A stretch of DNA of 64,000 nucleotides from an uncultured Chloroflexia bacterium (GCA_963736015.1 CAVTNG010000009.1:129005-193004), one strand, 5' to 3'. Shown: positions 7,927-40,568, counted from the stretch's first letter. The notes: generated from the sequence alone by a model not told the origin. A program made the numbers and translations.

Positions 7927-8349
7927 CTAGCTGACCTCGATGCCCATGCTGCGGGCCGTGCCCTCGACCATGCGGATCGCGGCATCGATGTCGTTCGCGT
8001 TCAGGTCCTTCATCTTGATCTCGGCGATCTTCTGCAGCTCGGCGCGGGAAAGCGTCCCGACCTTCTCGCGCTTCTGCGCGCGGCTGCCCTTCTCCAGCCC
8101 GGCCGCCTTCTTCAGCAGGTCCGATGCCGGCGGCGTCTTCAGCACGAACGAGAACGAGCGGTCCTCGTACACCGTGATCTCCGCCGGCACGATCGTCCCC
8201 GCCTGGCTCGATGTCTTCTCGTTGTACTCCTTGCAGAAGCCCATGATGTTGATGCCGTGCTGGCCCAGCGCCGGTCCCACCGGCGGCGCGGGGTTCGCCT
8301 TCCCCGCCTCGATCTGCAGCGTCAGCATCGCCCGTATCTTCTTTGCCAT
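7927..8349 (-). CDS. rplK: 50S ribosomal protein L11
   Basis: 140-aa ORF with [43 protein letters not shown]. Confidence 0.97.
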
Positions 8350-8465
8350 CGTTCAGTTCTCCATCCGCCGTGCCGTGCGTGCGGCTTCGCCTCGCATACA
8401 CAGCGAAGCCTCGCCCGCGGCGAGGCATCTTACTCCGTCCCTGCGCCCGCAGGTAGCGCGCCGCC

Positions 8466-9110
8466 CTAGAGCCGCTCGACCTGCAGGAAGTCCAGCTCGA
8501 TCGGCGTCTCGCGCCCGAACATGTTCACCAGGATCTTCACCTTCCCCTTCTCGAGGTTGATGTCGTCCACGGTGCCCGTGAAGTCCTGGAACGGCCCATC
8601 GACAATGCGCACGTTCTGCCCGACCTGGAACCCGACTTTGACCTTCGGCGCTTCGACGCGCATCTGGCGCAGGATGCGCTTCACCTCCGGCGGCTCCAGC
8701 GGCACTGGCCGCGTGCCCGAGCCCACGAATCCCGTCACACCCGGCGTGTTCCGCACGACGAACCACGCCCGGCTCGACTCGATGTCGTCTTCCTTCAGCT
8801 CGATCATCTGAGTCAGCACATAGCCCGGGAAGATCTTCCGCGCCACGGTGCGCCGCTGGCCGTCGCGGATCTCGATCTCGTCCTCGGTCGGGATCACCAC
8901 CTGGAAGATCAGGTCCTTCGCGTCCATCGTCTGGATGCGGTGCTCCAGGTTCGTCTTTACCTTGTTCTCGTACCCGGAGTACGTGTGGATCACGTACCAC
9001 GCGCGGCCCTCCTGGATCGCCTCATCTTCGGGCGATGCCGGTGGGTTGCCATCGGCATCCAGGGCTGGCTCGACGGCGACCTGCGCGGTGGCCTTGCCTT
9101 TACGCGCCAC
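8466..9110 (-). CDS. nusG: transcription termination/antitermination factor NusG
   Basis: 214-aa ORF with WYVIHTYSGYENKVKTNLE...KVGFQVGQNVRIVDGPFQDFTGTV (NGN + KOW). secE-nusG-rplK synteny. Confidence 0.95.
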   Translation of the reverse strand: MARKGKATAQVAVEPALDADGNPPASPEDEAIQEGRAWYVIHTYSGYENKVKTNLEHRIQTMDAKDLIFQVVIPTEDEIEIRDGQRRTVARKIFPGYVLTQMIELKEDDIESSRAWFVVRNTPGVTGFVGSGTRPVPLEPPEVKRILRQMRVEAPKVKVGFQVGQNVRIVDGPFQDFTGTVDDINLEKGKVKILVNMFGRETPIELDFLQVERL

Positions 9111-9111
9111 C

Positions 9112-9438
9112 CTATTGCCTCAACAGCGTGTGATCGACGAGCCAGTTGAAGAAGATGTCGATGCCGCCCAGCGCCATTCCGATTGCCGCCGATACGACGA
9201 TCACGGCGATCGTCAGCCGCAGCGTCTCCTCCCGCGTCGGCCACGTGACCTTCTTCAGCTCGCTGACAATGTCGCGGAAGTAGCGGACGATCGGGTCGTA
9301 AAAGTGCTTCGGCCGCGCCGTCTCGGCTGCGGCCGCTGACTGCTGCTTCGGCGCAGGGCGCGCGCCCGAAGGCCGGAACGAAGGCGTCTTCGACGGCGGC
9401 TTCTGTACGAGCGACTGCCGGCGCATTGCGCGGCTCAT
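9112..9438 (-). CDS. secE: preprotein translocase subunit SecE
   Basis: 108-aa ORF. C-terminus has FRDIVSELKKVTWPTREETLRLTIAVIVVSAAIGMALGGID. Lies between rpmG and nusG. Confidence 0.9.
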   Translation of the reverse strand: MSRAMRRQSLVQKPPSKTPSFRPSGARPAPKQQSAAAAETARPKHFYDPIVRYFRDIVSELKKVTWPTREETLRLTIAVIVVSAAIGMALGGIDIFFNWLVDHTLLRQ

Positions 9439-9456
9439 GCTGCTCTCTCTCCCTGC

Positions 9457-9621
9457 CTACCGCACCTCGCGGTGGGCCCGGTGGATGCGGCACCTGGGGC
9501 AGAACTTGCTCAGCTCCAGGCGGTCTGGGTCGTTGCGGCGGTTCTTGCTCGTCGTGTACGTACGCTCCTTGCACTCCGTGCAGGCGAGCGTGATGATCTG
9601 CCGGTCTTCCTTCTTCGCCAT
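9457..9621 (-). CDS. rpmG: 50S ribosomal protein L33
   Basis: Not in the ORF track (54 aa). Hand translation: [54 protein letters not shown]. Confidence 0.9.
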
Positions 9622-9724
9622 CTATTCCTCGCGGGCCCTCGACCCGCCGCCGTTCGCGGCCGCCATGCGCGCGTAGGCACCGCCCTACAGTCTATATCGG
9701 GCGGGGCGGGCCCTGCGGCAATGC

Positions 9725-10925
<1,201 letters not shown>

Positions 10926-17431: not shown

Positions 17432-17819
17432 GCGGCGCCCGTAGCCACACCCTCGCCGTCCGTGCGCCAGCCATTTGTCGCCTTGGCGGCTACGCGTCGG
17501 CATCCTAGCCCGCATGTCAGCCCGAGCGCCCAGCGAGCGATGCAACTCTGTTGACTACAACATCCCGACGCCAGCCGCACACAGACAGAACCACCTCTCG
17601 GGGAGCGGGCCGGGCCCGCCGGGCGCGAGCACGGTAACTTGACAACCGCCCTCACCCTCGTGCGCTAGAATCGAACGGCGCTGCTCCGGCGTACCCTACC
17701 CAGGGCCCGCCCGCCGCGCAGCTTCGGAGGCCCCGCCCCGCCGAACGCAATACCCGCCTGCCGGGCCCGTTTTTCCAGTAGGGACAGCCTCGCCGCCGTC
17801 CCGCTGCTGGGGCGCCAAT

Positions 17820-20800
17820 TTGAACTCACTCCCTCGCCACCACACCTCTCGCGCGCAGCTGCTCGGCGTCCTGGCGATGCTCGTCGCCCTCATCGGCACC
17901 GCCCGCTACGCCCCGACGCCCGCCGCCGCCGCCAGCGGCGCCTGGACCGGCGACTTCTACAACAACAAGACACTCAGCAATCCCAAGGTCATCACAGTCA
18001 CCGATCCGGCCAACGCCCTCCTCGGCGCCACTCCCACGCTCGACAAGTACTGGACGGGCTCCCCCGCCTCCGGCGTCAACGCCGACAGCTTCAGCGTCCG
18101 CTGGCAGCGCACCGATACCTGGGCCGCCGGAACCTACCGCTTTACCGTCAAGACCGATGACGGCATGCGCCTTTACGTCGACAACACGAAGATCCTCGAC
18201 CAGTGGATCGACCAGCCCGTCACGACCTACTTCGTCGACTTCGCCGTCAGCGCCGGCCCGCACACCCTGAAGCTCGAGTTCTACGACGCCGTCAACGACG
18301 CCGTCGCACAGCTCACCGTGCAGGACGTCAACACGCTCCCGCCCGGCTGGAACGGCCAGTACTTCTCGAACATGACGCTCGCCGGCAGCCCGACATTCAG
18401 CCGCAACGACGGCGATGCGATCGACTTCCAGTGGAACACCGGCTCCCCCGGCGGCGGCGTCCCGGCCGATGCCTTCAGCGTGCGATGGACGCGCAGCATC
18501 ACCTTCAACGAAGGCGTGTATCAGTTCAGCACCAACAGCGACGACGGCTCACGCGTCTTCGTCGATGGCCAGCTCATCCTCAACGCATGGCAGGATCAGG
18601 CCCTCACCCTCACCACCGCCAATAAACAGATGACGGCCGGCGCCCATACCGTCGTCGTCGAGTACTTCGAGCACGCCGGCGGCGCTGAGATGCACTTCGC
18701 CTACGAATACCGCCCCGATCTCGGCGGCTTCGTTACCGAGCCCATCGTCACCGGCTTCGCCACGGCGACCGTGTTCGCCTTCGCCCCCGATGGCCGCATC
18801 TTCGTCGGCCAGAAGGACGGCACCATCCGCATCTTCAAGAACGGCGCCCTGCTCGGCACGCCCTTCTACACCATCTCCCCGGTGAACAACTACCACGACC
18901 GCGGCCTCATCGGCCTCACGCTCGACCCGAACTTCGCCTCCAACCACTACGTCTACGCGTCCTACACCTACGACCCGAACCCGATCGCCTCGAAGATCGC
19001 CGATCCGAAAAACGCCCAGGTGATCCGCGTCACCGCCAACGGCGATGTCGCCGTGCCTAACAGCAAGGTCGTCCTGCTCGGCACCGTCGTCGGCACACCG
19101 TCCACACCGTCCTGCGAAAGCCTCGACCTCGCCGCCGACTGCATCCCGTCGGACTACGACAGCCACAGCATCGGCAACCTGAAGTTCGGCCCGGACGGCA
19201 AGCTCTACGTCGCCACCGGCGATGGCGCCAGCTACGCCACCGTCGATAGCCGCGCCCTCCGCGCGCAGAACATCGACCGCCTCGCCGGCAAGATCCTGCG
19301 CGTCGACCCCGCCACCGGCCAGGGCCTCTCCGACAACCCCTTCTGGAACGGCAACGCCAACGCCACCCGCTCGAAGGTCTGGGCCTACGGCGTCCGCAAC
19401 GACTTCCGCTTCAACTTCAAGCCCGGCACGAACATCATCATCAGCGGCGAGGTCGGCTGGGATACCTGGGAGGAGCTCAACGTCGTCACCGCCGGCGAGA
19501 ACCTCGGCTGGCCCTGCTACGAGGGCGTCGATGAGCAGCCCGGCTACGCCGCCTTCACTCAATGCCAGTCCCTGTACTCCGCCGGTGGCGTCACCGCCCC
19601 GCTGTACCAGTGGGACCATTCCGCGGGCACGGCCGCCGCCGTCGGCGGCGCCTTCACCGGCACAAACGGATACAGCTCCGCCTACCAGAACGCCTACTTC
19701 TTTGGCGACTACGCCGTGAACCGGATCAGCGCCGCCAAGCTCGACGCCTCCAACAACATCATCCCCGGCAGCCTGCTCACCTTTACGACGGCGGCCGACG
19801 GCCCCGTCGATATCGAGATCGGCCCCGAAGGCGATGTCTATTACCTGGCGATCAACGCCAACGAGATCCGCCGCATCCACTTCGTCGGTGACAACCGTCC
19901 GCCCATCGCCGCCGGAACCGCCTCGCCGTCCGCCGGCCTCACACCGCTCACCGTGAACTTCAACGGCACCGCCTCGAGCGATCCCGATGCCGGGCAGGCC
20001 ATCACCTACGACTGGAACTTTGGCGATGGCAGCGCCCACGCGACGACGGCAACGACCTCGCACCAGTACAACACCATCGGCACCTACACCGCCGTCACTG
20101 ACCGTCACCGATCCGTTCTTCCTCACCGATACGAAGACGTTCCAGATCCAGGCCGGCAACACGCCGCCGAACGCCACGATCACGTCCCCGGCGAACGGCG
20201 GCCACTACGATATCGGCGACATGATCTCCTTCTCCGGCACCGCGAGCGATGCGCAGGACGCCAGCATCCCGCCGTCGAGCATGGCCTGGAGCGTCATCCT
20301 CAACCACTGCTCCGACGCCACGTACACGATCTGTCACACGCACCCGCATCTCACCATGACCGGCACCGGCGGTTCGTTCTCGGCCGATGACCACGGCGAC
20401 TTCACCAACTTCGACATCTTCCTCACCGTCACCGACAGCGGCGGGCCTCACTACGACGAAGCAGGTGAACATCACGCCCAACCGCGTCAACCTCAACTTC
20501 GCCTCCAATATCGCCGGCATCAACATCACCGTCGATAGCGGCAGCGAGACCGTGCCCTTCACGCACAGCGTCCCGCGTAAGTCCGTGCACGTGATCTGTG
20601 CGCCATCACCCCAGACCGTCGGTGCCAACACCTACTTCTTCACCGGCTGGTCCGATGGTGGCGCCGGCTGTCCGTCCGGTGAGCCCCTCCACCGCGTCAC
20701 CGCCGACGTGAACAAGACGCTCACCGCCACCTTCGCTCTGCCCACGCCGACGCCCACGAGTACGCCGACGTTCACGAGCACGCCGACGCCGACGCGCACG

Positions 20801-21801
20801 CCGACACCGACCCGCACCAACACGCCGACAGCCACACACACGCCGTCGCCCACGGCCACGAGCACGCCCACCCTGCCCGACGCCGATAGCGATGGCATGC
20901 CCGACGCGTTCGAGGCGGCCCACCCGTGCCTCAACGCCGCCGTCAACGACGCCGGGCTGGACCCGGACGTCGATACCGTCACCAATCTCGCCGAGTACGG
21001 AAACGGCACGAACCCGTGCGCTGCCGACACCGACGGCGACGGCTTCAAGGACAAGCCCGCGACGCTGCATCTCGCCGTCAACGCCGATACCGCCGTCGAT
21101 AACTGCCCGCTCGTCGCCAACGCCGGCCAGCAGAACTCCGATGCCGTGATCGACAACGGCCCGGACATCGTCGCGCCGGACGTCACCGTGGCCAGGAGCG
21201 ACGCGCTCGGCGATGCCTGCGATCCCGACGTCGACAACGACGGCCTGCCCAACGCCGAGGACATCGAGCCCCTCGGCGCCACCGGCATCTGCGCCGCCTT
21301 CGCGGGGGAGTCCGACGGACACCCCTTCCCCGCCGGCGGCGACATCACCAGCGACGACAACGCCGACGGAGACTCCGCGCCGCCCCTCGGAACCGACGCC
21401 GCCGACAACGGCCCATCATGGGACACCGACAACGACGGCGTGCTCGATGGTGTCGAGTGTCAACTCGGCACCAACCCCCGAAACGCCGCCTCGCGCCCAT
21501 CGAGCGCGCAGTGCGGCGGCGCCGTGGACGCCGATGGAGATCTTCTCCGGCCTCAACCGAGACATGCAAGTGGGGGACGTCCGACTCCAGCACCGACAGC
21601 GATGGTGACGGCATCGCCGACTGCGTCGAGGTGAATGACCTGGACGGTAATGGCGTGCAGAATTTCCCGGGCGACACAATAAAAATTGCCAATGCCACGG
21701 CGGGAAACGCCGCGAAGTCCCTGGACTTCGATCTCAACGGCGATGGCATCGTGAACTTCCCCGGAGACGCGGTCCTTTCCGCCAAGATCGCGCTGCGGTA
21801 A
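17820..21801 (+). pseudogene. ~1327-aa secreted multidomain protein: signal peptide, 2x PA14, PQQ/glucose-sorbosone dehydrogenase-like beta-propeller, PKD-like, PT linker, TSP3 repeats, dockerin-like tail; three frame changes (~20096, ~20445, ~21548)
   Basis: TTG start and hydrophobic leader LLGVLAMLVALIG. PA14-like GDFYNN...FSVRW twice. Propeller segment PDGRIFVGQKDGTIRIF. PT-rich 20738-20877. Tail DLDGNGVQNFPGD...DLNGDGIVNFPGD. Confidence 0.8.
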
Positions 21802-21917
21802 CACTTGCTCGTAGACGCGTTGCCTCTCATGTGCTTTACGTCGCCCCGCCATGCGCGTATGCTCTGCGCTGTTAGCCCCGCACGTCGCCCGCTAGGCCGC
21901 CAGGATCGGAGATAACG

Positions 21918-24563
21918 GTGCGCCTCAACCTTCGACGCTGCCCCGTGTTGTCAGGCTTCGTTCTGCCTCTCATGGTCGTCGCGTCAGCCGCGGGCGTCAT
22001 CCCCACTGGCGCTGACCATCAACGCGTGCTCGCGCAGTCGCCCGTCCGGCACTGGAATGGCAACGCGACCGCGCCCGCGATCGATACGCTCTCGATCCAT
22101 GCCGGCAAGCCCGCCAACGCGAAGCTCGATAGCCATCTCGCCGATCTCGCCTCCGTCGTCACCTTCCAGCGCGGCCTCGGCCTCGCGCCCTCCACCAGCG
22201 GCGCGGCGCTCCCCGCCGATCTCGCCTCGCTCGAGGCGGCCGGCGTCCTCCACACCGATGGTCACGGCCGGGTCCAGGTGTACGTCCACTACCAGGGCAA
22301 CGCCGACACGTGACGCAAGGACTCGCCGCGCTCGGCGCCACCGTGCGAGGCGTCCAGTGATGACGATCGCATCATTCAGGCGGAGGTCGATGCAGGCGCA
22401 CTACCCGCCGCCTCCGCCATCGCCGGCGTGACGTTCATCTCACCGCCGGACTACGTCATCCCCGCGACCGGCGCCGCCCTCACACAGGGCGATGCCCTCC
22501 TGCTCGCAAGCCAGGCCCGCACCAACCTCGGCGTCGATGGCACGGGCGTCCGCGTCGGCGTCATCTCCGATGGCATCGCTGGTCTCGCCGCGAGCCAGGG
22601 CTCGAACGACGTCGGCCCCGTGACCTCACAGTCGTTCCGCGCCGACATGAACCTCAACGCCGGGCCGGAGGGCACGGCCATGCTCGAGATCGTGCACGAC
22701 CTCGCCCCCGGCGCCGAGCTCTGGTTCGCCAACGCCAGCACCACCATCGAGTTCGCCAACGCCGTCACTTTCCTCGCTGGCAACGTCGATGTAGTGGTCG
22801 ATGATCTGCGCGCGTTCGGCGGTCCCTACGACGGCACCAGCACCATCTCGATGGCGAGTTCCTCGAACTCCACGAACCCCGCGAAACGCGAGCGCGTCCA
22901 CCTCAACGCCGTCGGCAACGACGCCCTCGACCACTACCAGGAGCCGTTCGTCGCCTCGGGCTTCACTTTCAACGATGGCGGCGTCGCGGCCCCCGTCCAT
23001 GGCTTCCAGGCAACAGCCTCGACAACAGACGGCGGCTTCCCCCAGTTCTGCAACGGCACGAGCGGCATCTCCTGCTGGAACATGCTCGCCCTCCCCGTCG
23101 GCGGTACCGCCACCGTCTTCGTTGAGTGGAACGACCCCTTCGGCGCGTCCTCGAACGACTACGACGCCTTCCTGTTCGACGCCACAAGTCCCGGCCCCAT
23201 CAGTACGAGCACCAACCGGCAGAACGGCACTCAGAATCCCGTCGAGGTCGTCGGCGTAACCAACAACACCGCGCAGCCGCAGGCCTACTTCCTGCTCCTC
23301 GCGAAGTTCGCCGGCGCCACGCGCACCTTCGACATCTTCCTCAGCTGCTCGCCGTTCTGCCTCTTCTTCAACAACAACGCCGACCTCAACTTCAACACCA
23401 TCTCCAGCAGCGTCCCTAACAACTCCGATGCCGGCGGCAACGTCCTCGGCCTCGCCGCCATCGACCAGGCCGATCCCGGCACCGACACCGCCGAGCTCTA
23501 CTCCAGCCGCGGGCCGACGAACGACGCCCGCAACAAGCCCGATATCACCACCGTCGACGGCGTCGCCATCACCGGCAACGGCGGGTTCCCCGTCCCCTTC
23601 TTCGGCACCTCCGCCGCCGCGCCGCACGCAGGCGCCATCGCCGCCCTCGTGCTCCAGTGCTTCCCCGCGCTCAAATCGGGCGAGGTCGGTGACAACCCGG
23701 CCGCGGATCGCGCCACCGTCCGCACGAAGCTCACCTCGGGCCTCACAGATCTCGGCACCGCCGGCGTTGATACCACCTTCGGTGCCGGCCGCATGAACGC
23801 CGTCACCTCCACCACCGGATGCGACAGCGACGTCGATGGCGTCGTTAACGCTTCGGACAACTGCCCCATCCTCGCGAACGCATCGCAGGCCAACTTCGAT
23901 GCCGCGCCCATCGACAACGGCATCGGCATCGTCGGTAACGACGCCTCTGTGCCCGGCGCGGACAACCTCGGCGACGCCTGCGATCCCGACCGCGACAATG
24001 ACGGCCTGCCGGATGCGTCCGAATCCCCGCTCGCCGGTTGCGGCGCCTTCAACGGGATCGTCTCGACGCACCCTAACCCCGCCGGCGGCGACGCCACCGA
24101 CGACGACAACGCCAACGGGGACCCCGCCCCCCTTGATGGTGCCGATCTCGCCGACAACGGCCCCTCCTGGGACACCGACAACGATGGCGTCCGGGATGGT
24201 TACGAGTGCGCCAACGGCTCCAACCCGCGCGACGCCGCGTCGCTTCCGCTGCCCCTCGGCGATGACGCCGCGGACACCGACAACGACGGCCTACTCAACG
24301 GCTGGGAACGCCGCGGCTGGGGCACCGACCCCACAAAGGCCGACACCGATGGCGATGGCAAGTCGGACTGCGCCGAAGCCGGCGACGTCGATGGAAACGG
24401 CAGCTTCAACTTCCCCGGCGACAGCCTAGCCGTCGCCCGCGCCGCCCTCGTCCCGGGCTTTGGCCGCACCAGCGACCTGGACCTCAACAAGGACGGCGTC
24501 GTGAACTTCCCCGGTGATGCCATCAACAGCGCCAAGCGCGCCCTCGGCGTCATCCCCTGCTGA
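21918..24563 (+). pseudogene. ~881-aa secreted S8 (subtilase)-like peptidase with TSP3 + dockerin-like tail; compensating -1/+1 pair at ~22310/~22358 leaves an in-frame TGA
   Basis: GTG 21918 after GGAG, plus a signal peptide. Motifs GVRVGVISDGI and GTSAAAPHAGAIAAL. The local frame-2 stretch VTQGLAALGATVRGVQ bridges TGA 22311-22313. Tail DVDGNGSFNFPGD...DLNKDGVVNFPGD. Confidence 0.8.
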
Positions 24564-25131
24564 CCGCGTCTCCCGGACCCCGTACGCGCTCCGAGAACTC
24601 CGCCAGCGACCGCACCAGCACGAGCCCGGGCGGCGGCTCCGTATCGCCGTGCGCCCCGGCATGGTCCAGCAGGTACACGCGCTGTACACCGTGCGTCGCC
24701 AGGTGATACGCCGTGCGTGGGTCATCGTCGATGTGTGCGTCCAGCGACAGCCGCAGCGCCGTCGCCAGCTTGTGCTGCGGAGGGCGCAGTCCCGGCGGCG
24801 CCATCTCAATCCCTCGCACGCTCGCATCCAGCCCGTGCCCGCGTAGCCAGCGCCGGATCAGCGGCTCCCCGGCGCGGCTCCGCCCCGTGACGATGTAGAT
24901 CTCATGCGCCGCCGCGATCTCGCCCAGCACCTTCGGCGCGTCCGGCGCCATGCGGCGCCACCCGAACCGCAGGTACTCGATCGCCAGACGCAACGGCTGC
25001 GCTCGCCCCGGCGTCCCGTACAGGTCTTGGTAGTTCGCCGGAAGGTCATCCACGGGCGACGGCGCGTGCACCGCCATGCGGCCGAACGGCGTCTGGCACA
25101 GCACCCCATCGAAGTCGAAGCCGATACGCAT
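24550..25131 (-). CDS. HAD-superfamily hydrolase-like protein (nucleotidase-like)
   Basis: MRIGFDFDGVLCQTPFG (DxDGV motif)...IYIVTGRS...HIDDDPRT. Read in the same frame as upstream ssuE with no stop between them. Confidence 0.6.
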   Translation of the reverse strand: MRIGFDFDGVLCQTPFGRMAVHAPSPVDDLPANYQDLYGTPGRAQPLRLAIEYLRFGWRRMAPDAPKVLGEIAAAHEIYIVTGRSRAGEPLIRRWLRGHGLDASVRGIEMAPPGLRPPQHKLATALRLSLDAHIDDDPRTAYHLATHGVQRVYLLDHAGAHGDTEPPPGLVLVRSLAEFSERVRGPGDAVSRG

Positions 25132-25641
25132 CAGCGCGGCGACGCGAGCGCGATCGCCGTCCGCTGCGACGCCCGCCACGCGCTCCCGCAGCCGCGGTTC
25201 CGGCTGCCCCTCCGGGAACTGCTCGTCCGTCGCGTACACGCCCGCGATCGCCACGCCATCGAGGCTCGCGAACAGCGGCCGCATCCCGTACTCCACCGCC
25301 AGGAAATGCTGCGGCGCCGCCCCGGTCTGCACCGGCACGCAGATCTTCCCCGCCAGGTGCGCCGGCGGCATCAGGTCGAAGAACGCCTTCATCACGCCCG
25401 TGTACAGCGCCCGGTACGTCGGCGACGCCGCCACCACGATCGCCGCCCCGCCCACCGACGCGATCGCCTCATCGAGCGCCGACGCCGATGCGCGCGCGAC
25501 GAGCGCCTCCGCCGGCAGTTCCGCGACATCGATGATCGACGTCTCGCACCCGGCGCCCGCCAGGTCGGCCAACATCAACTCCGCCAGCAGCTTCGACTTC
25601 GAGGGCGAGCGCGGGCTGCCCGATATCGCGACCGCGCGCAT
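25132..25641 (-). CDS. ssuE: NAD(P)H-dependent FMN reductase (SsuE-like)
   Basis: MRAVAISGSPRSPSKSKLL...AASPTYRALYTGVMKAFFDLMP...LAVEYGMRPLFASL parallels E. coli SsuE. The stop codon is not seen in this frame. Confidence 0.7.
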
Positions 25642-25649
25642 CCCCGCCA

Positions 25650-26739
25650 CTACGCCGGCGTCAGCTCGCGCGGCGCCGCGGGCACCGCCGCTTCGCCGCG
25701 GAAGTGCGGCATCACGTACCGCCCGAAACGCTGCCGCCTCCTCCAGGTGCGGGTAACCCGACAGGATGAACGTATCGATGCCCTCGTCCACGTATTCCCG
25801 CAGCCGCGCCGCCACGCTCTCTCCGGATCCGACGAGCGCCGTACCGACGCCGAGCCGCGCCTTGCCGATGCCGCTCCACAGGTTCGGGCCCAGCCATTCA
25901 TCCTGCGACGCAACCAGCGCGCGTTGCCGCTTCTCACCTTCCGAGTCGCCGGCCGCATGATGCTTGTCCATCATCTTCTGGAAGTTCTCCGGTATCTCCG
26001 ACACCAGCGCCTCCGCCGCCGCGCGCGCCTCCGCGTCCGTCTCCCGCACGCACACGTGGATGCGCATCCCGAACCGCAGCGTCCGCCCCAGCTCCGCCGA
26101 CCGCGCGCGCATGTCCGCGATGCGCTCCCGCACCATCGGCAGCGGCTCGCCCCACAGCAGGTACACGTCGGTTTCCGCCGCGCCCACCTTCTTCGCCGCC
26201 TCCGATGCGCCACCGAAGTAGAACGGGGGGCTCGGCAGCTGGTACGGCTTCGGGTGCACGTCGCCGTTTTCGATGCGGTAGTAGCGGCCCTCGTGTCCCC
26301 ACTTCTTCGGCTCCGTCCACGCCCGCCGCACCACCTGCATGAACTCCTGCGTGCGTGCGTATCGCTCGTCGTGCTCGGTGAAGTCGCCGTCCGCCGCCAG
26401 CTCCGCCGGGAACCCGCCCGTTACGACGTTGATCAGCACGCGCCCGCGCGTCATCTGGTCCAGCGTGTTGGACATCTTCGCCGCCACCGTCGGCGCGATG
26501 AACCCCGGCCGCATTGCCACCAGAAACTTCAGCTTCTCCGTCCGCGCCGCTACGACCGCAGATGCCAGCCAGGCGTCCTGGCAGGTCGTGCCAACCGGCA
26601 CCAGCGCGAACACGAAGCCCGCCTCCTCGGCGGCGCGCGCCACTTCCGTCAGGTAGTCGGCCGTCGCCGGCCGCGTCGGCGGGCCGATGACCTCGCTGTC
26701 ACCCATGGTCGGGAGAAACCAGCCAAAATCGATGGTCAT
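25650..26739 (-). pseudogene. ssuD: FMNH2-dependent alkanesulfonate monooxygenase (SsuD-like, LLM class), frame change near 25735
   Basis: MTIDFGWFLPTMGD...CQDAWLASAVVAA...LKFLVAMRPGFIAPTVAA...ILSGYPHLEEAA. The true C-terminus RFGRYVMPHFRGE...* lies in ORF 25650..25958. Confidence 0.85.
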
Positions 26740-26880
26740 GCTTGACTCCGAAGGCGTTGTCCGGCGGTGGCTGGAGTATAGGCACGCTTCCGGCTGCGCT
26801 CAATTGGGCCGAAAGCGTTCATCTGGCCGTAACCTGACGCCGCTATACTCCGACCATTCCAGCGGGAGGAACGTCCGGTC

Positions 26881-27546
26881 GTGCACAAGATCCTGTTCGT
26901 CGATGCCTCGGAGGAGTTGGCCCCGCTCGCGTCCACGCTCGAGGAGCACGGCTTCGGCATCACCCACGCCACCCCCATCCGCGCACTCGAGCGCGCCGGC
27001 GCCGAGCAGCCCGCCGTGATGCTCTTCAGCCTCCTGGGCCGCCCCGACCTCCCCGCAATCCGCAACCTCCTGCGCGCCGCTGATCTGCCGCACGGCGTCG
27101 CCTCGATCGCCCTCCTCCGCAGCGATCAGCTCGAGTCCCTCGACTTCTCCACCGGCTTCGATGACTTCCTCGTCTACCCGGCGCTCACCGAGGAGATCAC
27201 CGCCCGCCTTCGACGCGCGATCTGGCTGAAGTCCGGCATCGAGAGTGACAACACCCTCCGCGCGGGCGACCTGCACATCGACCTCGCGAACTACAAGGTC
27301 TTCGTCGCCGGCCGTGCCGTCGATTTCACGTACAAGGAGTACGAGCTCCTCCGATTCCTCGCCACGAACCGCGACAAGGTCTTCACCCGAGAGGCTCTCC
27401 TCAACCGCGTCTGGGGCTACGACTTCTACGGCGGCGCCCGCACCGTCGACGTCCACATCCGCCGTCTCCGCAGCAAGATCGAAGACCGCGCGCACACCTT
27501 CATCGAAACCGTGCGCAACGTCGGCTACCGCTTCCACCTCGACTAA
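26881..27546 (+). CDS. OmpR/PhoB-family winged-helix regulator with degenerate (pseudo-)receiver domain
   Basis: GTG start. The C-terminal part LRAGDLHIDLANYKVFVAGRAVDFTYKEYELLRFL...RTVDVHIRRLRSKIE is a canonical trans_reg_C domain. The receiver lacks the acceptor Asp (MLFSLLG). Confidence 0.8.
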   Translation: MHKILFVDASEELAPLASTLEEHGFGITHATPIRALERAGAEQPAVMLFSLLGRPDLPAIRNLLRAADLPHGVASIALLRSDQLESLDFSTGFDDFLVYPALTEEITARLRRAIWLKSGIESDNTLRAGDLHIDLANYKVFVAGRAVDFTYKEYELLRFLATNRDKVFTREALLNRVWGYDFYGGARTVDVHIRRLRSKIEDRAHTFIETVRNVGYRFHLD

Positions 27547-27577
27547 GCGTCGACCCTGCGACCAATACCCTTCGTAG

Positions 27578-27597
27578 GGGCGCAGCCTGCTGCGCCC
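27578..27597 (+). terminator. GC-rich hairpin downstream of the regulator gene (REP-like, no U-tract)
   Basis: GGGCGCAGC-CT-GCTGCGCCC, 32 nt past the stop at 27546. Similar GTAGGGG-prefixed hairpin at ~28464-28497. Confidence 0.3.
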
Positions 27598-27675
27598 TCG
27601 CCGTCGCGCACCGGCATCGACAAAACCACGACTGATGCCCGGTCGCGCTCACGCACCCACTCGCTATCGTGACGC

Positions 27676-28434
27676 GTGACCCGGACTACCGAACCGCCCC
27701 CCACCGCCCCGCGCACGACGCGCGTCGACCGCATCCGCGCACGTTGGGATCGCTCCATCCGCCGCATCCGCACTCGCTGGGATCGATTCCTCGATCGCTT
27801 CGAGCACCTCATCGTGCGCTGGGAGGCCGAAGGCGCCACCGTCGACAACAAGCCCATCGTCACCGCCGGCAACCGCCGCATGGCCATCATCGGCATCGGC
27901 AGCGCCCTCGTCGGCACCATCGCCGCCCTCGTCGTCGCCTACACCATCGGCGGCGTCCAGCTCGTCAAGCGCCTCGGCTACGTCGGCGTGTTCCTGTCGT
28001 CCGTCATCGGCTCCGCGTCGATGTTCATCCCCGTCCCCGGCTCCCTCGCCGGCATCACCTTCGGCCTCTTCCTCACGCCGATCCCGCATGTCCCGCAGCC
28101 GCTCACCGTCGCCGTCGTCGTCGCTGCCGGCTCGGCGGTGGGCGAACTCACCGGCTACTCCACCGGCATCGGCGGCCGCGCCGTCATCGGCAACAGCCGC
28201 ATCGGCCGACTCCTCGTCGCCCTCATCCACCGCCACGGCTCGATCACCGTCTTCCTCATCGCCGCCGTTCCCAACCCCTTCATCGATGTCGGAGGCATCG
28301 CCGCCGGCGTCGCCGGCATGCCCATTCGCCGCTTCATGGCGATGATGTTCTGCGGGAAGACCATCAACTACCTGGCCATCGCCTACATCGTCAGCAGCGG
28401 CATCGAGTGGGCCCAGCGCTTCGTCAACGCCTGA
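27676..28434 (+). CDS. DedA/VTT (SNARE-associated, TVP38/TMEM64-like) family membrane protein
   Basis: 252-aa ORF (GTG start), Arg-rich N-terminus, multiple TM helices. Motifs FLSSVIGSASMFIPVPG and FLIAAVPNPFIDVGGIAAG. Confidence 0.65.
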   Translation: MTRTTEPPPTAPRTTRVDRIRARWDRSIRRIRTRWDRFLDRFEHLIVRWEAEGATVDNKPIVTAGNRRMAIIGIGSALVGTIAALVVAYTIGGVQLVKRLGYVGVFLSSVIGSASMFIPVPGSLAGITFGLFLTPIPHVPQPLTVAVVVAAGSAVGELTGYSTGIGGRAVIGNSRIGRLLVALIHRHGSITVFLIAAVPNPFIDVGGIAAGVAGMPIRRFMAMMFCGKTINYLAIAYIVSSGIEWAQRFVNA

Positions 28435-28560
28435 CGCACACCGCTAGACTCACCCGATGCGACGTAGGGGCCGGCTTGTGTGTCGGCCGTGCGCACCCGA
28501 GTCGAAGCTCACGCTTCGCGAACCATGGCGTAGCAATAACCGACTGAACCGGCCGATCCT

Positions 28561-28952
28561 CTACGACGCCTCGATCTTCCACGGCGGATTCAGCCGGTAG
28601 TCGCGCTCCTCGCTGTACAACCTCAGTTCGTGGCCGTCCGGATCGCGAAGGCGCGCCTCGCGCCAGAGGTAGAACATGTCCGTCGGCTCCTGGTAGAACA
28701 CGATCCCCCGCTCCTTAGCGCACGCACGTCGTCATCCACCGACTCGCACTGGAAGAACAGCTCCGCCGGTCCGCCTGCTGAACCCGATGCCTCCCCCTTG
28801 ACCTCGACCGACAGCGTCGCGTCCCCGTCCGGAAACGTGAAGCGCGCGTAGCGCGGCGGCGCATCGACGATCTGGGTCAGCCCGAGCGTCCGGTAGAACG
28901 TCTTCGAGCGTTCGAGATCGCTGACGATGAGCGTGACGTGATTGAAACGCAT
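28561..28952 (-). pseudogene. VOC/glyoxalase family protein, frame change near 28725
   Basis: MRFNHVTLIVSDLERSKTFYRTLGL...FFQCESVDDDV, then in another frame ...IVFYQEPTDMFYLWREARLRDPDGHELRLYSEERDYRL. Length 392 = 3n+2. Confidence 0.7.
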
Positions 28953-29056
28953 GACGTTGCCTCCTCACACCATCATGGCGCGCGGCGTCGCCGCAGGCAT
29001 CGGCCCGCCGGCGCAAACGGCACTACACCTTTGGACGGAGGATGCGCGGCCCGTCG

Positions 29057-29635
29057 CTAGCCCGCGCGACGATGCACTTCAAGCACCGTCGGCTGCGAAA
29101 CATCGGTCTCGACACGCTCGATCCTGTCGCCCGCTCGGACGTCTCCCGCCTCGACCACGCTCGCGTAGAAGCCCGTGCGTCCGGTCTCGCGCATCCGCTC
29201 CTTGAACTCCGGCATCGCCATCCGGATATCGAGCTTGTAGCAGGGCCCCCGCGGCTCCGTCACCCGGAGCAGCGCCTTCCCCGCGCGCAGCACGTCTTCA
29301 ACGCGGACCTCGTCCTCCAGCATCCCCTCCACCGTGAGGTTCTCCCCGAACTGACCGTGGGGAAGCGCCCGCCCCAGCTCCTGCGACCATGTTTCGTAGT
29401 GCGCGGCCGGATAGACGTAGACGGCTTTCCGCTCGCCCCCGTGCACCTGGCGACCGTTGAAGACGCGCGTGTCCGCCTGTCCGTCGCCCGCCAGCCCCCA
29501 CAACCGGACCCGCACCGGACCTTCGACGGCCGATTTGTAGATCCCCGTAACCACGGTGTGCTCGCCGACGACGATCGCGCGCGGCTGCCCGACGTTCACC
29601 GACAGGATCGACAAACTCGTCTCGACCTCGGTCAT
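29057..29635 (-). CDS. MOSC domain-containing protein
   Basis: Start at internal ATG 29635 (MTEVETSLSILSVNVGQP). Motifs: GDGQADTRVF...HGGERKAVYVYP...GENLTVEG...RVTEPRGPCYKL. Confidence 0.8.
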   Translation of the reverse strand: MTEVETSLSILSVNVGQPRAIVVGEHTVVTGIYKSAVEGPVRVRLWGLAGDGQADTRVFNGRQVHGGERKAVYVYPAAHYETWSQELGRALPHGQFGENLTVEGMLEDEVRVEDVLRAGKALLRVTEPRGPCYKLDIRMAMPEFKERMRETGRTGFYASVVEAGDVRAGDRIERVETDVSQPTVLEVHRRAG

Positions 29636-29755
29636 GGCAAAAGTGTAGCGGGCAGGTTGAACGGCGTATGACATTCCAGAGCTGTCGATCCCGGCCTGTC
29701 GTGCGGCGTCGTATCATCAGGCTACTGTCGGGCCACCGGATGAAGTGATCAAACG

Positions 29756-30328
29756 ATGAGTAACGACCGGGCCGAGGCAGCACCTGCGGCGGATGCGGAG
29801 CCGGCACCGACGCCGCGCGATCGCGTGCTGATGTCGATTCGGGCTGACGCGGCGCTGCTTCGCGATGAACTCGTCGCGCGCGTGCGGGCCGTGCAGGACG
29901 AGCTTCTCGGTATCTTCGCCGCAGGGCCTGGCGATGAGCGCGCCCGCTATCACGAAGGCGCCGACTGGTCGATGTCAGACCTGGCGCGCCATGTCATCGA
30001 CGTGGCGGAACGCATCGCTGCGCAGATCGGTGCGCTCGGTGCGGGACAGACGCCGCCGCCGTACAACGTGCCGGACGGGATGGAGATGCAGGTCGAGGAC
30101 GGCGGCGAGACGTTAGAGCAGTGGTGCTCGCGGTTGGGCGGCGCGCACGCATCGGTGCTGGCGGCAATAGACGGCCTGCCCCAGGAGCCCGACCTGGCTG
30201 TTACGTCCGGGCATGACTACTTCGGCCAATTCACCGCGCTCGAGTGGGCCGGGTTCCAGCGGTTTCACATCCTGATCACGCTGGATTACGCGCGTCAGCT
30301 ACTGGAGACTGCCGACACTCGACGCTAG
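29756..30328 (+). CDS. DinB-like / mycothiol-dependent-enzyme-type four-helix bundle protein
   Basis: 190-aa ORF with WSMSDLARHVIDV...EWAGFQRFHILITLDYARQL. Family assignment is tentative. Confidence 0.5.
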   Translation: MSNDRAEAAPAADAEPAPTPRDRVLMSIRADAALLRDELVARVRAVQDELLGIFAAGPGDERARYHEGADWSMSDLARHVIDVAERIAAQIGALGAGQTPPPYNVPDGMEMQVEDGGETLEQWCSRLGGAHASVLAAIDGLPQEPDLAVTSGHDYFGQFTALEWAGFQRFHILITLDYARQLLETADTRR

Positions 30329-30361
30329 GACGGGCGCGGCTCTCGGTACTAACTCGAAGGC

Positions 30362-30416
30362 CTGTGGTGCGGTGAACCCACCTCTCCGCGCCTTCTGCGT
30401 CTCTGCGGTGAACCCC
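30362..30416. repeat. dispersed repeat family B (TCCGCGCCYTCTGCGGTGAACC)
   Basis: ctgtggtgcggtgaaccca...ctccgcgccttctgcgtctctgcggtgaacccc. Second copy at 38389-38413. Confidence 0.55.
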
Positions 30417-30423
30417 AACCCCC

Positions 30424-31270
30424 CTACAGCCCCAGGATCTCCGCCAGCACCGGCCGCACATACTCCATGAACAGCCCCGGATTCTCGCTCATCGGAAAGT
30501 GCCCGAGCCCCGGCATGTCCTGATAACCGCGCCCGGAATCCGCTCCGCCAGCGCCTCGCCATCGCCGGCGTCGATGACCAGTCGTACTCGCCGTACATGA
30601 TGTCGACCGACACGCTCCGACGTATCGATCTGCTCCGCGGTTTCCGTCAGGTCGTGGTCGACGGAGTAGTAGTACAGGTCGCCCTTGAACACCGGCGGCG
30701 CGCCCTGGCTGTACACCCACGATGTCTCGTGCCGCAACGCCTCCGGGCTCGTCGGCGACATCAGCCCGTACATGACGCTTGCCTTGAAATCGTTCGAGAT
30801 CCGCGGGTGATGCCACATGTCCGGCGTACCCGCCGGGCGTGCGCGCCGACGCCTCGAGCCCGACGACCGCGCGGAAACGCTCCGGGTGATGCAGCGCCAG
30901 GTCGATCGCCAGGTGCCCGCCGATCGAACTGCCCATGAACGCGGGCCGCTCCAGCTCCAGCGCGTCCGCGAGCGTCAGCGGCACCTGCATCAGGAAGTCC
31001 TTCGTCAGCCGGTACTCCTGCGTCCACCAGTCCGTGCTCTCTGGCGGCAGCGACTTGCCGTGATACGGCAGGTCGTACGCGATCACGCGGAAACGTTCGC
31101 GCGAGCTCCGCGTCTCCGAGCACGTGCCGCCACTGGCGTCCATCCGCGCCGGCCGTGTGCTGCAGCAGCAACGGAATGCCCGCCCCCGCCTCTTCGAAGT
31201 ACACGCGATGCTCGACGCCGTCGATGGGCAGGTACACGTAGCGCCCGCTGATCGCGTCGAATCGCGCCAT
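30424..31270 (-). pseudogene. alpha/beta-fold hydrolase, about five frame changes
   Basis: MARFDAISGRYVYLPIDGVEHRVYFEEAGAGIPLLLQHTAG / RVIAYDLPYHGKS...AFMGSSIGGHLA (nucleophile elbow GSSIGG) / ...MPGLGHFPMSENPGLF. Pieces lie in three frames. Confidence 0.7.
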
Positions 31271-31642
31271 CACGCCTCTCCGTCCGCGCGCGCCAGCTCG
31301 ATCAGCCGCCGCAGCGCCGCGTAGTACGGCCCCACGATCCTCGACGCGTCCCTCCATCATGAAGCCGTGACGCGCGACAGCGCCGTACAGGTCCTGGTAG
31401 AACGGCCGCGGCCGCGGCTCCAGCATCGCGGCCCACCCGTCCTCGGGCCCGCTGATCCGTATCGCCCCGCTCGTCTTCCGCGGCACCTCGCTCGCTTCTT
31501 CGATGCGGCCGCCGCGCACGGTCATCCGCACCGTGTCTGCCCCGCCCGCGAACACGACGTCTGCATCCCACATGCGCGCCGCCAGCGCGAACTCGCCGTC
31601 GTCGTTCGCCCGCCGCATCGCCGCCAGCATCCGCTCCTTCAC
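31270..31642 (-). pseudogene. small conserved-looking protein (possible SCP2-like fold), frame change near 31335
   Basis: GTG overlaps the PrpD-family stop (GTGA). VKERMLAAMRRANDDGEF...RISGPEDGWAAMLEPRPRPFYQDLYGAV..., then GPYYAALRRLIELARADGEA*. Its stop overlaps the next ATG. Confidence 0.45.
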
Positions 31643-32972
31643 GAAGCCTCCGGCCGCGCGAGCGCGATGATCTCCCGCACAGACGTCGCCGTCTCGATGC
31701 CGTCGATGGCGTCCCGAAGCCGCTCCGCGCGCTCCCGCCCGATCACCGGCGACGCCAGCCCGAAGAACTTCGCCGACAGCGCCTCCCACTGCCGCTCGAG
31801 GTCCGCCGCCGGCCGCCCCGTGTCTGCGTCCGCGCACAGCTCCCGCCCGTCCGCGATCACCCGCACCGATCCCCGCGTCGAGGGCAGCCCCTGCTGCGGC
31901 GCGTACGTCACCCGCTCGAGCATGCCGCGCAGCTCCGCGCTCGCCATCCGCTCGTCCGTGAACGCCTCCGGATCGCCCGTGTCGTCGCCCAGCAGCGCCA
32001 TCGCCGTCGTCGCCCGCAGGCTGAACTTGCCCTCCAGACCCGTCCGCGGCTCCGCGATGTCGCACACGCCGATGCACTCCGCCGATCCCAGGATCGTCGA
32101 CCGACTCGATGTCCTCCGCGCGCAGCCCGTCGCGCCGCAGCGTGAGCGCGGCCTCGATCGGCGCGTGCGTCAGGTAGCACGATGCGTGGTACTTGAACAG
32201 CGTGTCGCGGATCACGAACCGTTCGCCGACGCGCATCGAGCCGCGCCGCGTCCGGCTCGCCGCCGCCGTGCGTCGAAGCGAACCCCTGCGCCGTCTCGAT
32301 GATCGACGTGTTCCCCGTGTACCCGCCGCGCGCCAGCAGCGCCGAGAGCAGCCCGTTCTGCGCCGCCCGCCCCGCGTGCAGCGGCTTCGCCATCGTCCCG
32401 AAGCCGGATTTCAGCCCCGCCGCCTGCGTCCCCGCCAGTGCCATCGCCTGCAGCGTCCGCTCCCGGTCGAGCCCGAGCAGCCGCGCGCACGCCATCGCCG
32501 CGCCGAACGTCCCCAGCGTGCCCGTCGCGTGGAAGCCCAGCGCGTAGTGCCCCGGATTGAGCAGCGCCCCCAGCCGGCACTCCGTCTCGACGCCCGCGAT
32601 CACCGCATCGATGAACGCCGCACCGCCGATGCCCTCCCGCTCTGCAAGCGCCAGCGCCGCCGGCACCACGGGCACGCTCGGGTGCCCCGACATCATCGTG
32701 TGCGTGTCGTCGAAATCCAGCGCGTGCGACGCCGCCCCGTTGATCAGCGCCGCCGACAGCATCCCCGCCCGCTGGCACCGCCCCACCAGCCCCGCGTCGC
32801 CGCCCTCGATCGCCTCCCGCGTCAGGATCTCCGCCAGCGGCTCCCGCGCCCCCGCGATCGCGCACCCGAACCAGTCCAGCAGGCAATGCCGCGCAACGAT
32901 GCGCGCCTCATCACTGACCGCGCCCCGCATCATCCCATCGATGCGCTCAACCAGATCGAGAGTGATCCCCAT
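31639..32972 (-). pseudogene. MmgE/PrpD family protein (2-methylcitrate dehydratase superfamily), two frame changes (~32240, ~32097)
   Basis: MGITLDLVERI...CLLDWFGCAIAG...ASHALDFDDTH...GFHATGTLGTFGAA, then ERFVIRDTLFKYHASCYLTHAPIEA, then STILGSAECIGVCDIAEPRTGLEGKFS. Confidence 0.8.
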
Positions 32973-39551: not shown

Positions 39552-40232
39552 GTGGACGACCCGCGCGGCGGCTCCGCACTCGCGCTCCTCGAGCGCGCAA
39601 AATCCGGCGATAAGGACGCCTTCGGCCTCCTCGCCGAGGAGCATCGCGCCGCTCTCCTCCGCCTCTGCTACAAAATGACCGGATCGCACGAAGAGGCCGA
39701 GGACCTCGTCCAGGAAACCCTCCTCAAGGCCTTCACCCACATAGGGGAGTTCGAGCTCCGCGCCTCGCTCTCAACGTGGCTCTTCCGCATCGCCACCAAC
39801 GCCTGTCTCGACCACCAGCGTGGCCGCAAGCCCTGGGATCTCGACAGCCGCTGGCAGTGGTTTCGCGAGAACGGCGAGCTCGTGAAGCAGGTCGAGCAGA
39901 CCCTCTACCTCTCGCCCGAGCGCTCCGCCGAAGTGCGAGAGGTCGCCGCGACGTGCGTCAACTGCATCGCCATGTCGTTGCCCGCGAAGCAGCGCGCCGC
40001 CCTCGTCCTCTGCGACCAGATCGGCCTCTCTCGCGAGGAGGCCGCGCACTCCATCGGCGCCTCGGTCGCCTCCGTGAAGACGGAGCTGCACCGCGCCCGC
40101 AAGACCATGACCGACGTCTTCGAGAAGCGCTGCGCCCTCGTCGACGCCAACAACGAGTGCGATGGCTGCCTCGTCGCCGGCCGCATACAGCGCACGCGGC
40201 GGCCCGAAGCAGTCAGCGAAGGAGAAGTCCCC
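39552..40232 (+). CDS. ECF (sigma-70 family, group 4) RNA polymerase sigma factor
   Basis: GTG 39552. Region 2 is HEEAEDLVQETLLKAFTHIGEF...STWLFRIATNACLDHQR. Region 4 is LPAKQRAALVLCDQIGLSREEAAHSIGASVASVKTELHRARK. No stop before the next gene in this frame. Confidence 0.8.
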
Positions 40233-40568
40233 ATGACCTGCGACCAGATCGAGGAGCTCATGTCCGACCTCATCGATGACGAGCTCGCTGCAGGAGTGCG
40301 CGCTGGCGTCGAGGCCCACCTCGCATCCTGTGAGCGCTGCGCGAAGTCCTTCCGCGCGCTTGAGCGCACCGTCCGCTTCGTGCGCGCTAACTCGCGCCCG
40401 CGCCTCGCCTCGCACACACCCGGCGGCGTCTACGCCGACTTCACCCGCGCTCTCGCGGATGACGCCTACAACCGCGATCCGGTCGAGGTGCTCGTCAGCG
40501 GCATCGGAGACCTCATGCCCGCGCAGTCAGAAGCAGCGGACCGCATCAGCGGACGCAAGGAGGACTGA
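40233..40568 (+). CDS. zf-HC2-type anti-sigma factor (cytoplasmic, no TM segment)
   Basis: Own AAGGAG RBS 8 nt upstream. MTCDQIEELMSDLIDDELAAGVRAGVEAHLASCERCAKSFRAL (H-x3-C-x2-C motif). Confidence 0.7.
   Translation: MTCDQIEELMSDLIDDELAAGVRAGVEAHLASCERCAKSFRALERTVRFVRANSRPRLASHTPGGVYADFTRALADDAYNRDPVEVLVSGIGDLMPAQSEAADRISGRKED

Follow-up and report, generated by a model that had tools for sequence, protein, structure and literature searches.

Among the high-affinity connectors of bacterial proteins, cohesin-dockerin pairs are the best understood, and outside cellulosomes their role is largely obscure. Type I dockerins (PF00404), among them those of Pseudobacteroides cellulosolvens Cel48 (2Y3N_B) and Clostridium thermocellum Xyn10B (1OHZ_B), are C-terminal modules of ~70 residues in secreted enzymes and consist of two symmetric tandem loop-helix segments with Asp or Asn at loop positions 1, 3, 5 and 9. 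Cellulosomal scaffoldins combine a cohesin with a cell anchor, several cohesins with a dockerin, or one cohesin with a dockerin, and the enzymes carry a dockerin. Here we analyse a stretch of 64,000 nucleotides from an uncultured Chloroflexia bacterium (GCA_963736015.1 CAVTNG010000009.1:129005-193004), referred to in the following as the window, with positions counted from its first letter. Three of its genes encode proteins, P1, P2 and P3, that differ in their N-terminal parts and share a C-terminal tail. The last ~70 residues of the tail are very probably a dockerin homologue, and P3 is predicted to contain a cohesin as well. The tail probably works by docking onto cohesins, in a non-cellulosomal system that displays or retains exported proteins.

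The closest described relatives are non-cellulosomal cohesins and dockerins, which are reportedly widespread in bacteria and archaea (Peer et al. 2009, as cited in PMC2930009) and, like the modules of the window, occur without a cellulosome on peptidases and other proteins that are not carbohydrate-active. In view of this spread, the original prediction, a reading of the DNA made before the present analysis, overstated its case when it called such a tail unexpected in this lineage. A literature search for cohesin or dockerin together with Chloroflexi or Dehalococcoidia found no such system, the overlap with the catalogue of Peer et al. 2009 (FEMS Microbiol Lett 291:1) being unchecked. The fold matches of the P3-type domain include the solved non-cellulosomal cohesin of Archaeoglobus fulgidus (2XDH). 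Unlike the non-cellulosomal modules described so far, those of the window and its relatives form a coherent multi-gene set of anchored cohesins, a five-cohesin protein, adaptors and cargo, in which both modules are modified. Specialists would not, in principle, find such a system surprising. It differs from the described systems in its 13-residue loops, in the obligatory fusion with a wire of thrombospondin type 3 (TSP3) repeats together with a terminal Cys, in a cohesin subfamily invisible to Pfam, and in a cargo that is not carbohydrate-active combined with anchoring through membrane helices.

The common tail and its dockerin-like end

The genes, domains and tails discussed below are as follows. 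The signal peptides of P1 and P3 were called by eye, and HMM denotes the hidden Markov model of the last 74 residues of the tail.

17820-21801, plus strand: P1, with a signal peptide, two PA14 domains, a glucose/sorbosone-dehydrogenase-like propeller, a PKD domain, an Ig-like region, a Pro/Thr linker, TSP3 repeats and the tail
18342-18710, 18774-19850 and 19893-20093, plus strand: second PA14 domain, propeller and PKD domain of P1 (Pfam)
21026-21801, plus strand: tail of P1, a TSP3 wire followed by a dockerin-like module (motif scan, alignment, TSP3_bac and TSP_3 matches)
21592-21798, plus strand: dockerin-like module of P1, two 13-residue loops with NFPGD at 21661 and 21754 (HMM, E 3e-32)
21918-24563, plus strand: P2, with a signal peptide and pro-region (21918-22313), an S8-like peptidase and the tail
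23817-24560, plus strand: tail of P2, an intact copy that served as reference and lacks the QCGG/CKWGT cysteine pair
24339-24560, plus strand: dockerin-like module of P2, with a Cys ahead of loop 1, NFPGD loop ends at 24408 and 24504, and a final Cys
41992-43393, plus strand: P3, with a signal peptide, a predicted divergent cohesin and the tail
42085-42628, plus strand: N-terminal domain of P3, a predicted divergent cohesin with a long insertion that contains an LDDNPDxN...GWxC motif
42641-43390, plus strand: tail of P3, a complete copy that ends in GGICV
43166-43390, plus strand: dockerin-like module of P3, NFPGD at 43235 and 43328 (HMM, E 8e-36)

Frame-joined translation, motif scanning and alignment place the tail, including the stop codons, at ~21026-21801 in P1, 23817-24563 in P2 and 42641-43393 in P3. 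A fourth copy was not found in the window by a six-frame motif scan or with the HMM. From the DNCP motif to the end, over ~235 residues, the global identity is 66.8% between P1 and P3, 58.3% between P1 and P2 and 57.0% between P2 and P3. The local score of the P2 and P3 tails is 600, against 74 +/- 13 (maximum 114) for 200 shuffles of these Asp/Gly/Asn-rich sequences. The three copies, the order of their motifs (in P1, DNCP at 21098, IDNGP at 21149 and NGPSWD at 21407) and an identity of P1 and P3 well over one half had been read by eye in the original prediction, and all three statements agree with the measurements. Since the copies are only 66-73% identical at the DNA level, they are old paralogues; the same figure rules out that the tails were duplicated recently or homogenised by gene conversion.

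All three copies end in two tandem segments of ~22 residues, each a loop followed by a helix. The loop consensus is D-x-D/N-G-N/D-G-V-x-N-F-P-G-D and that of the helix x-I-x-S-A-K-x-A, with helix faces conserved in both segments. The first and second segments of one protein share a mean identity of 60% over 22 residues, which, judged by sequence, is the kind of internal symmetry seen in type I dockerins. Loops of the window type are 13 residues long; position 12 is Gly and position 13 is Asp, so that the last acidic ligand lies one position later than in type I dockerins. The EF-hand-like loop of type I dockerins, 12 residues with an acidic ligand at position 12, is absent from the window tails. 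Alignments with canonical relatives and with the solved dockerin 2Y3N_B require one gap per loop. The family as a whole displays a continuum of loops, from ..N-F-P-G-D as in the window through ..D-F-V-G-D or longer loops in other branches to the canonical 12-residue loop in distant branches, e.g. DVNGNSLVSAAD. The canonical members pass the Pfam Dockerin_1 threshold: 5 of 26 family members do so, all with canonical loops (best E 1.8e-7), and a precomputed PF00404 match is present in ~25 of 120 tail clusters among those listed.

The relationship to dockerins becomes evident from profiles of the terminal module. Profile A3 was built exclusively from modules with 13-residue loops and profile A8 from the canonical-loop members of the tail family. 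The best match of A3 to sequences of the PDB is the solved dockerin 2y3n_B (E 5.5e-4), with both segments aligned, followed by calmodulin EF-hands and then by the C. thermocellum dockerins 1ohz_B and 2ccl_B (E 0.15-0.26, full length). Comparison of A3 with A8 by hhalign yielded a probability of 99.3% (E 4.8e-20), and A8 itself matches ten solved dockerins with E-values of 1.7e-8 to 5e-6. An AlphaFold2 model of the P2 tail has a mean predicted local distance difference test (pLDDT) score of 77, with 80-95 in the C-terminal half, and a predicted template modelling score (pTM) of 0.73; its terminal helices comprise residues 201-211 and 231-242. In a Foldseek search these helices matched 3ul4_B with a template modelling (TM) score of 0.73 and a root mean square deviation (rmsd) of 2.6 A over 63 columns, and 2vn6_B with a TM score of 0.71 and an rmsd of 1.8 A over 58 columns. 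Profile similarity to type I dockerins extends over the whole module, and so does the superposition of the predicted model, with E-values above 1. Based on the profile and symmetry results, together with the predicted fold, it was concluded that the dockerin-like loop-helix pair with a loop one residue longer, as originally proposed, is correct; the canonical relatives and the partner cohesins described below agree with it. Of the checks suggested at that time, structure prediction gave the superposition of the two helices, albeit with E-values above 1, and the profile searches confirmed the TSP3 part of the tail and matched neither Dockerin_1 nor a sorting model.

The tail consists of two parts, ~170 residues of a TSP3 wire that is predicted to be disulfide-bonded and to bind Ca, and ~70 residues of a remodelled dockerin, the longer loop of which would also bind Ca. 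The TSP3 part of P2 scores 58.2 bits with TSP3_bac (E 6.9e-16) and 26.1 bits with TSP_3, the cut-off being 25 in each case; the P1 and P3 tails likewise exceed the thresholds of the TSP3 profiles, and matches were obtained in 24 of 26 (PF02412) and 19 of 26 (PF18884) family members. The best Foldseek match of the whole P2 model is the TSP3 wire of thrombospondin-2 (1YO8, E 0.05). As in other TSP3 proteins, the repeats are of the Ca-binding DxDxDGxxDxxDNC type with disulfides. They are interrupted by conserved inserts specific to this family, IDNGPGI..D.TVP, HPxPAGGD and ADNGPSWDTDNDG. Unlike plain TSP3 proteins, the tail always ends in the dockerin module, whose 70 residues are not covered by TSP3 profiles, and unlike type I dockerins this module is always fused to the conserved ~170-residue TSP3 region. 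The TSP3 part, two thirds of the tail, is conserved as strongly as the dockerin end. A conserved module directly upstream of a dockerin recalls the X-dockerin dyad of type II and III interactions, from which the tail differs by having a TSP3 wire in place of an Ig-like X module and by the lack of cellulases.

The tails contain up to eight cysteines. Those of the QCGG and CKWGT motifs are jointly absent from P2, P0010, P0031 and other aligned members, which fits a disulfide between them. Another Cys is always situated at most ~10 residues ahead of loop 1, and a further one at the C-terminus, following an amphipathic helix; the P1 module lacks the latter because of a stop codon. Dockerins are stabilised by a non-covalent 'clasp' between the N- and C-terminal ends (PMC3821032). 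From their positions, the Cys ahead of loop 1 and the C-terminal Cys probably form a disulfide that would join the termini of the module as a covalent version of this clasp.

The abundance of cysteines could also mean that the tail has no partner and is a Ca-loaded, disulfide-rich stabiliser or spacer that keeps exoenzymes soluble and protease-resistant. Eight cysteines, many Asp/Asn Ca sites, a compact model (pTM 0.73) and the joint loss of the QCGG and CKWGT cysteines, as expected of a structural disulfide, are in line with such a function. Yet a spacer need not occupy the extreme C-terminus, as the tail does in ~70 members examined, nor does it need conserved helix faces in both segments, and it is not expected on multi-cohesin proteins or beside anchored cohesins. 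This explanation is therefore considered improbable.

A predicted cohesin in the window and cohesins in related genomes

The N-terminal domain of P3 belongs to a family that Pfam misses. Neither P3 nor six of eight domain-only family members scanned matched Pfam Cohesin (PF00963), and in two relatives the match remained below the threshold (P0123, 22.2 bits with a cut-off of 24.1; P0193, E 0.0087). A profile of the P3-type domain retrieved nothing relevant from the PDB sequences. Because the profile-profile link to cohesins is weak, a structure model was needed, and the fold was tested on P0071, the closest relative of the P3 domain (E 3.6e-39), rather than on the frameshifted window sequence. 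The P0071 model, obtained with 64 homologues, has pLDDT values of 94-98 over the domain, and its top 50 PDB matches are all cohesins, comprising types I, II and III and the archaeal 2XDH, with E-values of 3e-6 to 1e-3, a probability of 1.00 and TM scores, normalised by target, of 0.5-0.71.

An exhaustive HMMER search of 1.84 billion representatives assigned 372 clusters to the P3-type family. Most of the 150 listed representatives consist of a signal peptide, the P3-type domain, a Pro/Thr linker, a membrane helix and a basic, Arg-rich tail. Others contain two to four tandem copies of the domain or end in a canonical dockerin, and in P0075, P0085, P0087, P0115, P0146, P0148, P0152 and P0154 the domain is combined with the TSP3-dockerin tail at the end. 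From the fold and the architectures of this family, P3 is predicted to consist of a signal peptide, a divergent cohesin and a dockerin-type tail. P3 would thus be a one-cohesin, one-dockerin adaptor-like protein, and the window would encode both types of partner.

Two further features of the P3-type family were observed at its C-termini. A PPxTGSG-like or VGGIAExPD motif often precedes the membrane helix (P0076, P0101, P0105, P0123, P0124, P0134, P0141, P0153, P0170, P0190 and others), and such ends look like sortase-type or other sorting signals. In P0090, P0092, P0094, P0133, P0168 and P0174 the anchor is replaced by another conserved C-terminal domain of ~90 residues that reads ..AGCNPVASTYPDGTP..LW.F...W.GYSP...SDL...D.VF.CV..RP; P0092, the sole member of this set that was scanned, has no Pfam match.

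Cohesins of the kind recognised by Pfam are encoded close to tail genes in related metagenome-assembled genomes (MAGs). Locus L002 encodes a protein of 1307 residues with five cohesins and the tail at its end (Pfam Cohesin, 5.9e-19). The five modules were delimited by eye and confirmed by an HMM, a BLAST comparison of the protein with itself having returned no repeats, and their profile matches the solved cohesins 3l8q (9e-6) and 2vn5 (8e-4). A canonical dockerin-like segment lies directly upstream of the tail of this protein. Besides the five-cohesin protein, the cluster L002:2827-10753 encodes a putative anchored single cohesin at 7952-8680, on the opposite strand, and, at 8645-10753, another protein with the tail. 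With the HMM of the L002 modules, single-cohesin genes were found at most ~3 kb from tail genes in L002, L011 and L016. Each product starts with a signal peptide, continues with a cohesin and a linker, Pro/Thr/Ser-rich in L011 and L016 and short in L002, and ends in a membrane helix followed by a basic tail, a sequence pattern that marks these products as putative membrane-anchored proteins.

Anchored cohesins, a multi-cohesin protein with a tail, the one-cohesin protein P3 and enzymes with tails together reproduce the arrangements of cellulosomal scaffoldins and their enzymes. The anchor is of a different kind, a C-terminal membrane helix, in some proteins after a PPxTGSG-like motif, instead of SLH domains.

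Spread of the tail, its cargo and the reading frames

In a search of 5.8 billion proteins the P3 tail retrieved 70 clusters, all from metagenomes or MAGs and all unnamed or 'hypothetical'. With a profile of 26 tails and a limit of E <= 1e-40 the family grew to no fewer than 194 clusters, of which one is labelled Chloroflexi. A scan of one genome per species, for which an alignment of six sequences and two peptide patterns were used, identified 20 loci, nearly all in MAGs labelled Dehalococcoidia, Chloroflexia or Anaerolineaceae with a GC content of 0.55-0.69. Seven loci belong to the MAG LejiaD_68_21, which, with two tail genes in L002, contains eight tail genes; two other MAGs contain three loci and two loci, respectively. 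As the scan employed only two peptide patterns, these counts per genome are lower bounds. Further carriers, whose absence would have weakened the original idea, are therefore plentiful, and the partner domain sought with them is found both in related MAGs and, as the predicted divergent cohesin, inside the window.

In the window, the cargo is represented by the S8-like peptidase of P2 (Peptidase_S8, 7.5e-10, match 23421-23789) and by P1 with its GSDH (5.8e-43), PA14 (6.3e-28) and PKD_4 (7.9e-12) domains. Across the family, Pfam supports S8, GSDH, RCC1, penicillin-amidase-like, purple-acid-phosphatase-like and alpha/beta-hydrolase domains; M23-like and M28-like peptidases and FG-GAP, NHL, Kelch-like and other propeller repeats were recognised by eye, and a lipase-like protein is also present. 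The cargo found, several items of which were called by eye, does not consist mostly of carbohydrate-active enzymes as that of cellulosomes does. In L012:862-3282 a P3-type cohesin is followed by two complete tails in tandem within one protein; the duplication takes in the entire tail, so that its TSP3 region and its dockerin act together as a single unit. Next to this gene lies another gene for a P3-type cohesin, on the other strand (L012:3-674, minus strand).

In the ~70 members that were examined first, the tail forms the very end of the protein; the distance of its terminal Cys from the chain end is 0-4 residues in most cases and as much as 5 in a few. A strict C-terminal position, a near-invariant penultimate or terminal Cys and one tail common to diverse cargo are also what would be seen if the tail were a C-terminal sorting or secretion signal in the style of LPXTG, PEP-CTERM or the type IX secretion system, with the Cys as the site of processing or attachment. 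However, inspection of the C-terminal sequences of the tails revealed neither a terminal membrane helix nor a basic tail, whereas cohesin proteins of the same organisms have such anchors, and the NCBIfam sorting-domain models did not match the window proteins. In addition, ~240 residues far exceed the size of known sorting signals, the first of the two tandem tails of L012 is internal, and the second Cys, ahead of loop 1, could plausibly pair with the terminal one in a disulfide. A sorting signal is thus highly improbable. Of the two functions originally envisaged for the tail, cohesin-dockerin display gains support from the dockerin homology and the partner cohesins, and sorting or anchoring loses it through the missing helix and the missing NCBIfam match.

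The tail is also present in two low-GC MAGs labelled Saccharimonadales and Patescibacteria, at L005:4915-6810 (GC 0.40) and L015:4942-6750 (GC 0.43). The L005 tail is 50% identical to that of P2, and the peptidase parts of the two proteins do not align. Transfer of the module between lineages, mis-binning or attachment of episymbionts to a host are possible explanations.

The reading frames of the three window genes are interrupted. Three-frame translation of P1 reveals three frameshifts, at ~20090, 20440 and 21545, and P1 ends at a TAA (21799-21801) 13 codons short of the conserved terminal Cys, where an 89%-identical orthologue in locus L022 (~10900) has CAA; the TAA could be a sequencing error or a genuine nonsense change. 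In P2 the open reading frame (ORF) 22428-24563 is intact, and an upstream ORF with the signal peptide (21918-22313) lies in the same frame, with a stop codon between the two. A three-frame reading puts the start of P2 at 21918, with two compensating frameshifts near 22300-22350. P3 contains one frameshift near 42392-42405, within a G-rich run. The essential EF-Tu gene of the window is likewise split over two frames (ORFs 9963-10925 and 9725-10147, minus strand), which identifies the frameshifts as errors of the assembly. The public contig ERZ25039520 contig_133483 (L022) is 89% identical to window positions 17638-31689, with gene order kept and 195 gap positions in 14.2 kb, and orthologous tails in related assemblies (P0011, P0035, P0041, P0048, P0053) are frameshifted at other places. 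Programmed frameshifting or pseudogenisation of P1-P3 is ruled out by the split EF-Tu gene, the gaps relative to L022 and the differing positions of the shifts in relatives. The possibility that the similarity of the tails would vanish once the frames were corrected did not materialise; the similarity runs across every frameshift.

At 24550-26739, an ORF of 729 residues on the minus strand seemingly combines a luciferase-like monooxygenase and a flavin mononucleotide (FMN) reductase with an additional C-terminal portion. Contig L022 encodes the luciferase-like and the FMN-reductase portions in separate genes, both fragmented, and the fusion in the window may be true or a frame artefact. From the window start to ~44 kb the GC skew is below zero (-0.08 to -0.21), and beyond this point it is above zero (+0.02 to +0.09); the change at ~40000-46000 may reflect a switch of replication strand or of gene orientation.

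Probable docking on cohesins and its alternatives

The modules and their neighbourhoods suggest the following sequence of events. Tail proteins would be exported through their signal peptides, and the dockerin end would then dock, presumably in a Ca-dependent manner, onto cohesin modules. These would be available in three forms: single cohesins held by a membrane helix, scaffoldin-like proteins with several cohesins, and adaptors such as P3. As a result, peptidases, sugar dehydrogenases and binding proteins would be displayed or retained on the cells of soil Chloroflexota. The role of the conserved TSP3 part may, by analogy, resemble that of the X module in X-dockerin dyads.

Several observations weigh against docking. 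None of the three window tails matches Pfam Dockerin_1 at E <= 0.1, and the Foldseek matches to dockerins have E-values of 1.2-1.6, above 1 because the domain is short, and were obtained with a predicted model and not a solved structure. The bidentate acidic residue of the EF-hand moves from loop position 12 to 13, for which reason Ca coordination by the 13-residue loop could be altered or lost. On the side of the cohesins, hhalign relates the P3-type domain to the L002 cohesins with a probability of 25%, the cohesin assignment of P3 is derived from the model of a homologue that is 48% identical, and the HMM of the L002 modules detected no Pfam-type cohesin in the 64-kb window. Cohesin and tail types co-occur in mixed combinations across the MAGs; since the combinations are mixed and the data too few, no rule that pairs cohesin type with loop type was derived. 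Finally, the docking model leaves the equally strong conservation of the ~170-residue TSP3 part unexplained, and every named match to the tail is a 'hypothetical protein'.

Alternatively, the tail could be a Ca-dependent adhesion or matrix module that binds a ligand other than cohesin, such as the S-layer, exopolysaccharide or another cell, a role that has been suggested for cell-cohesion proteins rich in TSP3; the nearby cohesins would then serve other dockerins. Two thirds of the tail consist of TSP3 repeats, which are conserved like its end; the NCBIfam matches of the window proteins, all TSP3-type and far short of the threshold, include weak ones (E 4e-9) with MtsC, a TSP3-rich protein of Myxococcus cell cohesion; dockerins with canonical loops in the same lineages could be the true cohesin ligands, and a changed loop length could indicate a changed function. 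On the other hand, the terminal module is homologous to dockerins over its full length and keeps their two-fold symmetry, architectures that are identical in all other respects occur with either canonical-loop or 13-residue-loop tails, the MtsC matches span only generic TSP3 repeats, and architectures and gene neighbourhood fit the logic of scaffoldins. An adhesion module is therefore unlikely, although less so than a stabiliser or a sorting signal, and docking on cohesins is the more plausible function of the tail. It is improbable that the genes form an undescribed, self-contained display system in which both partners have been rebuilt, one as a fused TSP3-dockerin unit with 13-residue Ca loops and a disulfide clasp and the other as an insertion-bearing cohesin subfamily, and in which the dockerins of Patescibacteria (L005, L015) serve to attach to, or feed at, cohesin-covered Chloroflexota hosts.

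If pairing of cohesins and tails is not confirmed, the finding shrinks to a lineage-specific Ca-binding tail. The analysis brings to light two families that domain libraries miss, the 13-residue-loop dockerin with its TSP3 wire and a cohesin subfamily of several hundred clusters, and models of both would improve annotation. For the engineering of orthogonal cohesin-dockerin connectors, both the altered Ca loop and the probable disulfide clasp are of interest. For the organisms themselves, the locus provides a concrete non-cellulosomal set of cargo, adaptor, anchored cohesins and multi-cohesin protein in an uncultured, abundant soil lineage, and it makes accessible to testing how such cells hold peptidases and oxidoreductases at their surface.

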